DNA of 64,000 nt. Origin: Gammaproteobacteria bacterium (lineage in GTDB: Bacteria; Pseudomonadota; Gammaproteobacteria; JABDGN01). The position numbers and the translations under genes are program-made. Shown piece by piece: positions 531-57,389 of the stretch. Position 1 is the stretch's first letter. Each line of letters starts with the position of its first letter. Under the pieces are notes generated by a model. The model did no database searches. It was not told the DNA's origin and worked only from the letters and a program-made list of their open reading frames with translations. The stretch is from positions 243 to 64,242 of the forward strand of contig JAWUYR010000030.1 in NCBI GenBank assembly GCA_034110705.1, in the 5' to 3' direction.

Positions 531-1283
531 TTGGATATTGTAAAAGCGATAAAAGCACGGGCCTCGACTCGTGCTTTTTTGTGTAAAGAGATTGATAATT
601 CAATTATTGAGCAAATTATTGAAGCTGCACGTTGGGCGCCTTCTGGTACAAATACACAGCCTTGGCATGTTGCTATTGTGCAAGGCGCTAAGAAAAGTTC
701 TATCACGAATGCCATGACAACAGCGTTCGATAATGGCGTGCTGAGTAATCAAGATTACCAATACTACCCAGTTGAAAAGTTACCAGAACCATATAAATCA
801 CGGCGTTTTCAGTGTGGTATGGCCTTATACAGCGCGCTCGACATTGCGCGTGAGGATAAGCTGCGACGTAAACAGGTTTGGCGTGATAACTACTAAGCAT
901 TTGATGCTCCGGTTATTTTATTTTTCTTTATTGATAAGTTTGTTGAAAAAGGCAGTTGGTTAGATTACGGCATGTTCATGCAAAATGTTATGTTGGCAGC
1001 CCTGGAGTTTGATTTGGCTACATGCCCACAAGCTGCGTTAGCTGAATATCCAGATATTGTTCGTGCTGAATTAGATGAAACTTATCAAGATAAAATGTTA
1101 GTTGCCGGTATTGCATTAGGCTATCCTGATATGACACAGGCTATTAATCAATATCGTACTCAACGAGAAGACGTCAATAAATTTACGAGTTGGTTTTCCT
1201 GGCGTGCTACTTTCTTTACATTAAGTCTTAGATCAGCCATTATTAACATTATATTTAACTCGTTAGGAGAAAATCATGGGTGA
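531..1283 (+). pseudogene. NfsB-like nitroreductase interrupted by an in-frame TAA at 894-896
   Basis: N-terminus LDIVKAIKARASTRAF...SGTNTQPWH matches the NfsB/nitroreductase family, and the NfsB alignment puts residue 1 at 531. The track's 'M' there is a translated TTG, which would be the start; it sits directly after the dksA stop (TAATTG) with no convincing SD. The frame is continuous through a single TAA: ...RDNY*AFDAPVILFF..., and the nitroreductase core continues downstream (...LATCPQA...GIALGYPD). Confidence 0.7.
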
Positions 1284-1620
1284 TAAGAATCAACAACCGG
1301 CATTAAAGAAAAATAGCGCATTATTTAAAACATTGCTCGTGCTATTGGTCTTATTATTATTGTGGTATTTTATTGGCCCATTGTTAGGTTTGACTGTTAG
1401 TTTAACGGCTGGCGCATTTGGTTTCTTAGTTATTATTTTAGTCTTGCTCGGGCTTGGGGCTATACTTGGAACGATATTAGCGGGTGTTGGGATGATCATT
1501 CTTGGTCTGCTTGTGGTTGTTGTCGCGATTGCGGGGATCATTTTATTCCCAGTCCTTCTGCCTTTTATTATACCGATTATTGTGATCTTAATTGTTGTGC
1601 GTTTGTGCCGCAGTAAATAA
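1276..1620 (+). CDS. small very hydrophobic membrane protein, function unknown
   Basis: AGGAG RBS 7 nt upstream of the ATG. 114 aa, almost entirely L/I/V/G transmembrane segments. Confidence 0.5.
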   Translation: MGDKNQQPALKKNSALFKTLLVLLVLLLLWYFIGPLLGLTVSLTAGAFGFLVIILVLLGLGAILGTILAGVGMIILGLLVVVVAIAGIILFPVLLPFIIPIIVILIVVRLCRSK

Positions 1621-1766
1621 TAGTTATTTTCACGCGATAAAATGTGGCATTAGTTTAATCGATGTTAAAGGTTGCTAACACAAATGTCATTGTGCTTGGG
1701 TTTAGTTGCTTATTCAGATCGCGGGCTAATAAACGATAGTGCTTGTACTAGATACTGCCGTGTATC

Positions 1767-54331: not shown

Positions 54332-55096
54332 TTAAAGCCAGCTCAAAAAACTTTGCTTAGGTTTTGTTGAGGCAGGTGTTTCATGCTGATCCAATGCCGC
54401 TAAATGGTAATTGTTAATTGTATCAGAGATACTTTGCACATATGCTGCGCGTCGAATTGAATACATAGATAAAGTCCCAACTAGTTTTAAACCTGTTATA
54501 GGGCGACCAGATAAGCGTATGAGGTGTCGTCGAACACGAAGACCACTATATAAATGTAAGGTGTTTAAATTCATCATATAACTTTGCACTGAATTTAACA
54601 TGCTAGGAAAACGCTGCACTTCAAATTTAGCACCTGTTGCGCGTTGCTTGGGTACTAAACCGCAACCTTTGCGATAGCACCATTGACCAAAATAATTGTT
54701 GCCTTCACAAGCAAATCGAGATTGCCCCCAAGCCGATTCATTAATGGATTGCGCTACCACCAATGAAATAGGAATAATGTCGACGCGTAATAACAATGCC
54801 TGCCAGGTCGCTGCTTTAGTAAAATCTGCTTTGCGGACTTTATACTGCTTGGCTAGGCGAACTAATATTTGATTTTGTGTGGGTGTTAATTTCTTTTCGC
54901 TAAGAAATACATGATACAAACTCAGTAAGTCATGACGTTGTTGCATTATTTTTTGGTTTGAAATGCGGGCCTGTTTTGCCATAAGCGCAATATACTGAGT
55001 ATGGTCAATCGCTTTACCAATGAGGTTGTAGGGAAAAAGAAGGGCGGTGCTGAGGAGCAATACCGGCCAAATAGTGTGCCACTTACACATTTGCAT
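54332..55096 (-). CDS. Bax-like glucosaminidase-domain protein
   Basis: VVAQSINESAWGQSRFACEGNNYFGQ resembles the mannosyl-glycoprotein endo-beta-N-acetylglucosaminidase (FlgJ/Bax) active-site region. It has an N-terminal signal/TM. Confidence 0.6.
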   Translation of the reverse strand: MQMCKWHTIWPVLLLSTALLFPYNLIGKAIDHTQYIALMAKQARISNQKIMQQRHDLLSLYHVFLSEKKLTPTQNQILVRLAKQYKVRKADFTKAATWQALLLRVDIIPISLVVAQSINESAWGQSRFACEGNNYFGQWCYRKGCGLVPKQRATGAKFEVQRFPSMLNSVQSYMMNLNTLHLYSGLRVRRHLIRLSGRPITGLKLVGTLSMYSIRRAAYVQSISDTINNYHLAALDQHETPASTKPKQSFLSWL

Positions 55097-55373
55097 TACC
55101 TAATTAATTTTTTTCGAGTATATCATATATTTGAATAATTGATAAGTGTCTCTGACCGATGGTAACTTACGGCTCTAATATACAGCCGTTAATCAATATA
55201 TGACTAGCTCTATATAAAATAATATTTAAGGCAGCAGACAGTTATGGTAGTATTCTTCTCTTGTTTTGAGCCAAGTTCATTACATTGTTAATGACTTTAA
55301 GTTGTTGGTTGATATTTTTTTGTCAACTATGTTACCCCTTGTTAATGATTTTTAAATACCTTGGAGAAAGAAA

Positions 55374-57389
55374 TTGAAAAGTATTGCCTTACCTGAGTTA
55401 ACCTTACGCGGTATTCTACTAGCTTGTGTTCTGACGATTTTGTTCACAGCCGCTAATGTCTACTTAGGGTTAAAAGTGGGTTTAACTTTCGCTACCTCTA
55501 TTCCAGCAGCCGTAATTTCCATGTCTATTTTAAGCCTTTTTAAAAATAGTAATATCTTAGAAAATAATATAGTACAGACTATGGCTTCGGCGGCGGGCAC
55601 CTAATCTAGTGTCGGGTTTGTTTTACCGGGTTTGGTCATGATTGGCTTTTGGCAAAAATTTCCATTTTGGCAAACTTTCATGCTCTGTGCCATAGGTGGC
55701 ATCTTTGGTGTTATGTTCACTATCCCATTGCGACGTGCTTTAGTTGTTGAAAGTGATTTGCCTTATCCAGAAGGCCGTGCCGCTGCCGAAACACTTAAAG
55801 TTGGTAATGCACATCGCGATGAAAATGGCCAAGTTGAAAAGTCTCATGACTTCGGCAGTCCATTACGAGATATTAGTATCGGAACATTGCTCGCGTTTGT
55901 GTTTGGCTTATTTAGCAGTGGCTTTGGTTTCTTAGGTGAGCAAGTTAGCCGCTACGGAAAAATTGTCTCTTTTTTTACGGGGACTGGTTTTCAGTTTTCT
56001 TTTGCCTTAATTGGCGCCGGGTATTTGATTGGTGGTCAGGTGGCTATTGCATTATTAGTTGGATCAATCATTAGTTGGTTAATTGCTGTGCCGATATTGG
56101 CTTATCATGTGCCACATGGTTTGCAGGAGGCGGGTGACTTTGCGTTAATGATTTGGTCAACCAAGGTTCGTTTTATTGGTGCTGGTACGATTGGCATTGC
56201 GGCTGTAGTCGCTATTATTAGTTTATTAAAGCCGGTGTATTCTGGTTTTAAATCATCGATACAAACAATGTTCGATCGCGCAGATGGACAAGAAATACCT
56301 TTGCATGAAAGAGATATACCTATTGTTTGGGTTCTAGTGGTGTGTTTATTATTGGTGCTTCCATTGCTCGCCTTATTTGGTGATTTTGCGTCATATAGTG
56401 ATTCTACGCTCAATGCTGGTCTCATTATCTCTTTGGTGGTCTCATGCGTTTTCCTAGTTGTTTTAATAGGGTTCATCGTTGCCGCGGTAAGTGGTTATAT
56501 GGCAGGTTTAGTGGGATCTTCTAACAGCCCAATTTCAGGTATTGGTATTATTGCAACAATTGCAGTATCTTTATTTCTTAGTTATGTTTTTAGTGATAAA
56601 CACGCGCACTCTATTGGGCTGAGTAATCATTTTCTTATTGCATTAGCTCTGTTTGTAACTTCCGCTATTATTTGTGCGGCCAGTATTTCAAACGACAACT
56701 TACAAGACTTAAAGACGGGACACTTGGTTGGTGCAACGCCGTGGAAACAACAAATATCATTAGTGATTGGCGTGGTGATAGGTGCGATGGTTATTGCGCC
56801 AGTGTTAAATCAACTTTATCAGGCCTACGGTTTCGTGGGTGCCTTACCAAGAGCTGGTATGGATCCTGCTAATGCTTTAAATGCACCACAAGCAACATTA
56901 ATGATGGCTATTGCCAAAGGGGTGTTAAGTCATAGCCTTGATTGGAGCATGATCGGTATTGGTATCTTGATTGGTTTTTTTTTTATTTTAGCGAACAAGT
57001 TTTTATTGGATGCAAAAAAATGGGCGCTGTCTGTGTTAAGTATTGGTATCGGCATTTATTTACCAGCCGAAATTACACTACCACTTATTTTAGGTGGGTT
57101 TCTCAGTTATTACGTTAAACGTAGAACGACAGAAGGTGCGTCAAAGTTTTTTGTAGAGCGTTGCGCAACATTACTTTCTTCAGGCTTTATCGTCGGCAGT
57201 TCATTGTTTGGTATTCTGCTCGCCGTGTTAATTGGCTTCAGTGGTAAAGCATCGCCATTAGTATTAGTCAGTCATCATTTTGCAGGTACCGCTAATATTT
57301 TAGGTACTATTGTGTTTATTCTTATTTGTATCTATTTTGTTAGATATATTTTGCGGACACAAAAAGCCTTTAACAATAAAACGAAGTAA
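55374..57389 (+). pseudogene. OPT-family oligopeptide transporter interrupted by an in-frame TAA at 55602-55604
   Basis: N-terminal LTLRGILLACVLTILFTAANVYLGLKVGLTFATSIPAAVISM is typical OPT. It reads ...MASAAGT*SSVGFVLPGLVMIGFW..., with the same frame continuing to 57389. The total is about 671 aa, a normal OPT size. Confidence 0.7.

Follow-up and report, generated by a model that had tools for sequence, protein, structure and literature searches.

Bacteria that have recently become host-restricted or have passed through a bottleneck, such as Mycobacterium leprae, Sodalis glossinidius, Shigella, Yersinia pestis and Salmonella Typhi, accumulate pseudogenes. Stop codons inside conserved genes, followed by open downstream frames, are also seen where stops are reassigned or suppressed (genetic codes 4 and 25, pyrrolysine UAG, suppressor tRNAs), and low-coverage short-read metagenome assemblies contain substitution errors from channel loss and cross-talk as well as errors near contig ends. 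We compared with these three backgrounds a stretch of 64,000 nucleotides from the Gammaproteobacteria bacterium of assembly GCA_034110705.1 (contig JAWUYR010000030.1, positions 243 to 64,242; the whole stretch is called the window below), in which a preliminary description had noticed six genes each carrying one in-frame stop, a deletion in glnA and three 1-nt frame breaks. Our analysis makes it probable, though by no means certain, that most of these lesions are genuine and very recent losses of function, fixed or nearly so in a near-clonal population. The phenomenon is of a known kind, of which the window is an early-stage example: like the genomes of host-restricted pseudogene accumulators, it has single lesions in otherwise well-kept genes of biosynthesis, transport and secretion, orthologs that are intact in relatives, and very low population diversity; unlike them, it has no expansion of insertion sequences (IS), no rate acceleration and no pseudogenes with multiple lesions, and it is 92% coding.

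The genes on which the argument turns, including one that is intact in the window, are the following.

531 to 1283, forward strand: nitroreductase gene, with an in-frame TAA at 894-896 in its translation
3987 to 5537, reverse strand: purH (AICAR formyltransferase/IMP cyclohydrolase), with an in-frame TAA, the complement of 4797-4799
30891 to 31514, forward strand: gspJ, a minor pseudopilin of the type II secretion system (T2SS), with an in-frame TAG at 31197-31199
45631 to 46608, forward strand: GT-A glycosyltransferase of toxin type, 325 amino acids, with a TAG at 46606-46608 that either interrupts the frame or is its true terminator
46609 to 47157, forward strand: open stretch in the same frame 3' of the glycosyltransferase, an orphan that is called as an open reading frame (ORF) of 151-155 amino acids
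49361 to 50500, forward strand: cation-efflux (CDF) gene, intact in the window
50565 to 51922, forward strand: glnA (glutamine synthetase type I), which has lost 88 nt at the 50921/50924 junction
51939 to 52565, forward strand: DUF4124/Ig-like secreted protein, whose variable linker holds an in-frame TAA at 52152-52154
55374 to 57389, forward strand: OPT-family transporter, with a TAA at 55602-55604 found in the window only

Exact-product look-ups showed that the window lies within an NCBI contig of 91,342 bp, and identified, in two JGI metagenomes (3300041950 and 3300041954) and one Logan assembly, contigs from the same population that are 99.6-100% identical to the window with zero indels; the same look-up with the GroEL of the window returned no contig. 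Outside the population, the closest homologues share 75-77% identity for PurH and 93% for GroEL, and the named matches are metagenome-assembled genomes (MAGs) entered as 'Gammaproteobacteria bacterium', at ~81% identity; scans of GTDB species representatives with a single protein, and then with a two-sequence tyrosine permease alignment, found no relative. More distant relatives are represented by three contigs that carry purH and the nitroreductase gene (L092-L094) and by one that carries glnA and the DUF4124 gene (L009). In these contigs all four genes are uninterrupted and the gene order is kept.

All six in-frame stops reported at the outset are present in the window. Of the claim that the downstream frames are conserved, the part concerning the nitroreductase, purH, gspJ, DUF4124 and OPT genes stands, whereas the C-terminal part of the glycosyltransferase frame has no homologue. 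As lesions, four of the six stops occur in JGI contigs as well, while the OPT position reads as a sense codon in a second assembly and the glycosyltransferase TAG may be a terminator. The firm set, every member of which is present in a second assembly that may share reads with the first, comprises the glnA deletion and the stops in purH, gspJ, the nitroreductase gene and the DUF4124 gene; sample 3300041954 supplied the purH stop, and sample 3300041950 the other four lesions. In favour of genuine inactivation, the stops break otherwise complete domains or orthologs, and relatives have intact counterparts of purH, glnA and the nitroreductase and DUF4124 genes.

The deletion in glnA, described beforehand as ~90 nt with a frameshift, measures 88 nt, takes out the GPEPEFF active-site segment and shifts the frame; being a deletion, it is not a base-call error. 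The same junction, which has no long repeat, is found more than 1 kb from the contig ends in JGI contig L007, and the ortholog in the relative L009 is intact at 469 amino acids. The purH stop falls at Tyr247, a nearly invariant residue (Tyr in 12 of 12 aligned homologues) within a motif, GKALSYNNIADTD, that is otherwise perfectly conserved among homologues. The relative has TAT at this position, which makes T>A the probable change; purH is intact, at 516 amino acids, in all three relatives, and the stop recurs in the middle of a JGI contig (L005), more than 1 kb from its ends. The top-scoring PurH match (P0001, from ENA, 674 amino acids) is Enterobacteria-like and has an internal duplication of ~150 residues, probably an assembly chimera in the source record.

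In gspJ, the Pfam T2SSJ profile is matched over positions 1-140 of 140 across the TAG, and the joined frame aligns to the XcpW and GspJ structures, so that its continuity is established through Pfam and PDB homologues. The split into 94 and 100 amino acids is also found mid-contig in L004, more than 1 kb from the ends, in a contig with 3 mismatches to the window over 9306 nt, and the remaining gsp genes (gspD to gspI, gspK to gspM, and gspC) are undamaged. The DUF4124 gene has an intact ortholog of 212 amino acids in the relative L009, with its C-terminal part conserved, and its stop likewise recurs mid-contig in L007, more than 1 kb from the ends. The nitroreductase profile (PF00881) is matched over positions 1-167 of 167 across the TAA; the ortholog in the relative L092 is intact, with 223 amino acids and an Arg at the stop position, and the TAA recurs in JGI contig L011. 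The nitroreductase frame of the window (1180-1283) runs ~27 codons beyond that of the ortholog in the relative and overlaps the next gene by 8 nt; a frameshift was sought behind this longer C-terminus and none was found.

The broken genes are as fresh as the preliminary description had claimed. Each carries a single lesion; the part of glnA after the deletion is 96% identical in amino acids to that of the relative, with a dN/dS of 0.02, the same as for radA and glyA; purH has no excess of changes, and relative-rate counts (Tajima) are balanced for PurH and GroEL, with no acceleration. Five firm lesions among ~66 genes, or eight including the doubtful ones, exceed what a typical free-living genome contains, and the pseudogene fraction is elevated in the window, to which this statement applies, as in reductive evolution. 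The remainder of the stretch is well kept, with ~40% GC, and Pfam scans of it found no IS elements or transposases. The proposal of reductive decay in a newly host-restricted lineage, which the preliminary description offered as the simplest reading, is an inference and was overstated: the window, being 92% coding, with no IS and with protein evolution at an ordinary pace, does not look like part of an established reductive genome, and it fits very recent inactivation.

On the interpretation that we favour, spontaneous mutations, mostly substitutions to TAA or TAG and in one case a deletion, would have escaped purifying selection. A supply of purines and glutamine from outside would render purH and glnA dispensable, or the effective population size would have collapsed, or both, and the events would be too recent for second lesions or an excess of amino acid changes to have followed. 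We infer that the lost functions are dispensable and that the lifestyle is host-associated; the organism is probably host-dependent, judging from the loss of glnA and purH, the toxin-type glycosyltransferase, the T2SS and the orphan secreted proteins.

The explanation that competes best is that technical artefacts account for most, if not all, of the stops, through errors of low-coverage Illumina reads that lie behind the NCBI and JGI contigs alike; we regard this as possible but unlikely. The assemblies differ at ~38 positions, of which two are transitions and ~36 transversions. Both transitions are synonymous (CTG/TTG at 15535, in the gene at 14446-16089, and GCT/GCC at 52283, in the gene at 51939-52565), while the transversions fall without regard to codon position, mostly change the amino acid and in many cases lie close to a contig end; they also cluster: five in 34 nt (L010 770-803), three in 13 nt (L001 3018-3030) and seven in 184 nt of the CDF gene. 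Clustered transversions between assemblies are better read as technical noise than as evolution, and low-quality base calls of two-colour chemistry, presumably the platform used, would fit noise made up of transversions only. The two synonymous transitions are then the only credible polymorphisms in ~36 kb (~6e-5 per nt), which makes the population almost clonal, possibly through a bottleneck.

This noise creates stops. In the 184 nt of the CDF gene in question (L007 237-420, window 49925-50108), L007 has five transversions of its own, one of which yields a false TAA, and the window has two nonconservative ones that polarisation against the relative L009 assigns to the window only, D215A at 50004 and D250Y at 50108. 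The premise of the preliminary description, by which sequencing artefacts do not typically take the form of nonsense substitutions, therefore fails in these data. In the genes concerned a random transversion yields a stop in 5.9% of cases, with T>A offering the most target sites.

The OPT stop behaves in the same way, and it alone combines failure to recur, a neighbouring anomaly and a break in coverage. The OPT profile is matched over positions 1-622 of 623 across the TAA, and the residue at the stop is Leu in 76 of 80 homologues, all of them distant matches (at most 58% identity, in a comparison set dominated by one clade) that were used solely for the conservation of this Leu; L007 has TTA (Leu) there. 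Twelve nucleotides on, at 55615, the window has a second anomaly of its own, GGG (Gly) against GTG (Val) in L007 and Ile or Val in homologues, and both anomalies sit where L007 ends. The shortened product of 76 amino acids is recorded from the NCBI contig only; an exact-product look-up of the 583-amino-acid C-terminal fragment returned no contig, and a metagenome search for the exact DNA pattern around the stop had no match. The OPT stop is thus probably a base-call or assembly error specific to the window, or a rare allele. The relative L009 (6210-6622) has no OPT gene between a Bax-like gene and radA (window 55096-57417), which points to an accessory insertion in the lineage of the window or to a loss in the relative.

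For the other stops, the numbers speak against artefact. Discordance specific to the window runs at ~4 per 36 kb, which, with 5.9% of transversions being nonsense, predicts ~0.4 spurious stops in the window and so matches OPT alone; five more false stops would imply ~80 errors, or 1.3e-3 per nt. In the overlaps of three assemblies, one synonymous transition is the single site at which the window stands apart from the other two. At the ~500 conserved columns of PurH and GroEL there is no transversion-type anomaly, the deviations (1 of 198 and 1 of 303, respectively) being conservative and of transition type, although this test and the relative-rate test have low power against ~1e-3 errors per nt. 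The noise between the contigs of this population resembles low-coverage assembly errors, being confined to transversions, which come in clusters, ignore codon position, gather at contig ends and create false stops; the purH, gspJ, DUF4124 and glnA lesions, unlike such errors, are isolated, keep a distance of more than 1 kb from the ends of contigs and recur identically in a second assembly, and the three stops among them have perfectly matching surroundings. The nitroreductase stop recurs too, though at 290 nt from a contig end, that of L011. A contig of 91 kb requires reasonable coverage, the glnA junction has no repeat able to cause a k-mer misjoin, and the purH stop was recovered from a different sample from the other lesions.

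Several observations nevertheless weigh against most of the lesions being genuine. Co-assembly from the same low-coverage libraries would let read errors enter both assemblies, and the ~36 clustered transversions that separate these, with the false stop that one of them produced in L007, show what such errors look like. At least four suspicious transversions of the window lie near breaks of JGI contigs; the purH stop is 23 nt past the end of L011, and the 290 nt that separate the nitroreductase stop from a contig boundary are counted from the start of that same contig. Both stops that can be polarised, in purH and OPT, are T>A changes, an uncommon natural class, and the sole lesion found in two separate samples is the glycosyltransferase TAG, which may be a normal terminator. 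Finally, a signature of long-term decay is missing from the window, as the coding density, the want of IS and the unaccelerated rates described above indicate.

A stronger claim than the one that we favour would be that the window captures a near-clonal population at the first moments of gene loss, with one knock-out event per unrelated function and no background divergence, driven by a transversion-biased mutator or by selection for loss of function, or else tolerated by virtue of an ochre-type suppressor; this we consider doubtful. Improbable, too, is that the lesions are real but segregating, being positively selected (pathoadaptive or Black-Queen) or hitch-hiking in a transversion-biased mutator clone, and do not mark the onset of general decay. 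The genes with nonsense lesions carry no additional missense load, the population is close to clonal, both OPT alleles occur among the assemblies, every polarisable change is a transversion, and two JGI contig ends lie at most 25 nt from lesions (L007 at OPT, L011 at purH), as bubbles caused by polymorphism would produce; yet technical noise explains the transversion bias and the clustering better, coverage gaps explain the contig ends equally well, and the mutY, mutM and mutT loci are absent from the window.

Codon reassignment is excluded, as the preliminary description had anticipated, because all three stops terminate genes (TAA in 44, TAG in 11 and TGA in 10, as in groEL, gspF and gspE, respectively) and because the residues expected at the in-frame stops vary by gene (Tyr, Leu, Arg, Ala/Pro). 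Full-length protein made by nonsense suppression, through an ochre-type tRNA that reads UAA and UAG but not UGA or through context-dependent read-through, is hardly credible, for although TAA and TAG account for all six in-frame stops and the frames beyond them are intact, the lack of TGA among six is expected from target sizes alone with p ~0.19, efficient suppression would be costly with TAA ending 44 of 65 genes, the bases after the stops share no context, tRNA and Rfam scans of the 64-kb window were both empty, which leaves no such tRNA or recoding element in the vicinity, at least one stop fails to recur in another assembly, and the glnA deletion is beyond rescue by general suppression, itself unlikely.

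The glycosyltransferase was described beforehand as Lgt-type. It matches Pfam PF04488 (Gly_transf_sug) at 27.8 bits, has a DXD motif and an N-terminal 'YLHWIWIG' motif, and matches PDB entries 8ovs (E=0.004) and 4mix (E=0.012); it is weakly similar to YeGT of Yersinia, PaTox-G of Photorhabdus and SetA of Legionella (E=0.73 for SetA), and Lgt1 is not among the matches. Its closest known counterparts are glucosylating toxins of the clostridial type and effector glycosyltransferases. It thus shares with YeGT, PaTox-G and SetA/Lgt the N-terminal 'xLHxIWIG' motif, the DXD motif and the Pfam family, and its 325 amino acids fit a stand-alone catalytic domain of the kind found in YeGT, PaTox-G and SetA; it differs from Legionella Lgt1-3 in that it has no match to them and is an orphan beyond its own population, a search with the joined protein among 5.8 billion proteins having found no homologue outside the population. 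Its TAG is present in L006 and L010, from the two JGI samples. The 182 codons downstream have no homologue outside the population among either 5.8 billion or 1.84 billion proteins, exhaustive HMMER search included, and this stretch has no Pfam match and no clear ribosome-binding site. Seven ordinary gene junctions in the window likewise consist of a single stop between two ORFs in the same frame. Given the C-terminal part with no homologue, the commonness of such junctions and the size of a stand-alone domain, the TAG at 46606 may be a plain terminator, the natural end of the 325-amino-acid protein.

Of the three 1-nt frame breaks in the preliminary description, one survives as a candidate. 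The features concerned are the following.

11298 to 11715, forward strand: small Cys-containing secreted protein, with a candidate 1-nt frameshift seen in three-frame translation
31586 to 32035, forward strand: ORF of 149 amino acids with a signal peptide, whose last 4 nt overlap a complete gspK at 32032 to 32976; not a lesion

The ORF at 11298-11441, which has a signal peptide, carries on in another frame to 11715; the interval in which the frame changes holds the run CAAAAC, and the shift possibly occurred at its run of four A. A family or homologue that could confirm the frameshift was sought and none was found, and it is the sole plausible 1-nt frameshift in the window. The supposed break in gspK is a junction between two separate genes, with identical gene calls in L004. 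The frame problems considered for gspD, gspH, gspI, mlaA and a 195-amino-acid ORF were rejected; the four named genes are intact. The 149-amino-acid ORF has no family and, sitting between gspJ and gspK, forms an insertion that is unusual for pseudopilin operons of the T2SS.

The gene order of the window is typical of Gammaproteobacteria. It runs as follows, in six blocks.

Block 1: dksA, nitroreductase, purD, purH, fis, dusB, prmA, accCB, dsbD, fxsA, groES-groEL
Block 2: nudix, ptsP, lgt, thyA
Block 3: complete gspD-M operon, with gspC opposite
Block 4: gpmI, M23 peptidase
Block 5: toxin-type glycosyltransferase, CDF transporter, glnA, DUF4124, tyrP, OPT transporter
Block 6: radA, glyA, nrdR, nusB, thiL, pgpA, tldD

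ORFs with no Pfam family, several of them with signal peptides, lie at 3196-3915, 10317-11048, 16149-16736, 17975-18743, 42940-43806 and 47154-49094, and the syntenic region of a relative also holds large orphan ORFs, of 899, 995, 383 and 334 amino acids. This richness in orphan ORFs is reminiscent of the genomes of effector-rich intracellular bacteria. In the last block, nusB comes straight after nrdR, and the two overlap by 4 nt (60170-61062). Many Gammaproteobacteria have riboflavin genes (ribD, ribE, ribBA, ribH) between these two, and their absence here may reflect loss of riboflavin synthesis or just another arrangement.

Substitution noise in low-coverage assemblies makes in-frame stops, so pseudogene counts from MAGs need checks at the level of reads and are not to be taken as biology before such checks. 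If the firm lesions are real, the window would offer a rare view of gene loss at its very beginning, with single hits in pristine genes, and would be useful for dating and ordering the events of genome reduction. A cell lacking glnA and purH would then need glutamine and purines from its surroundings.

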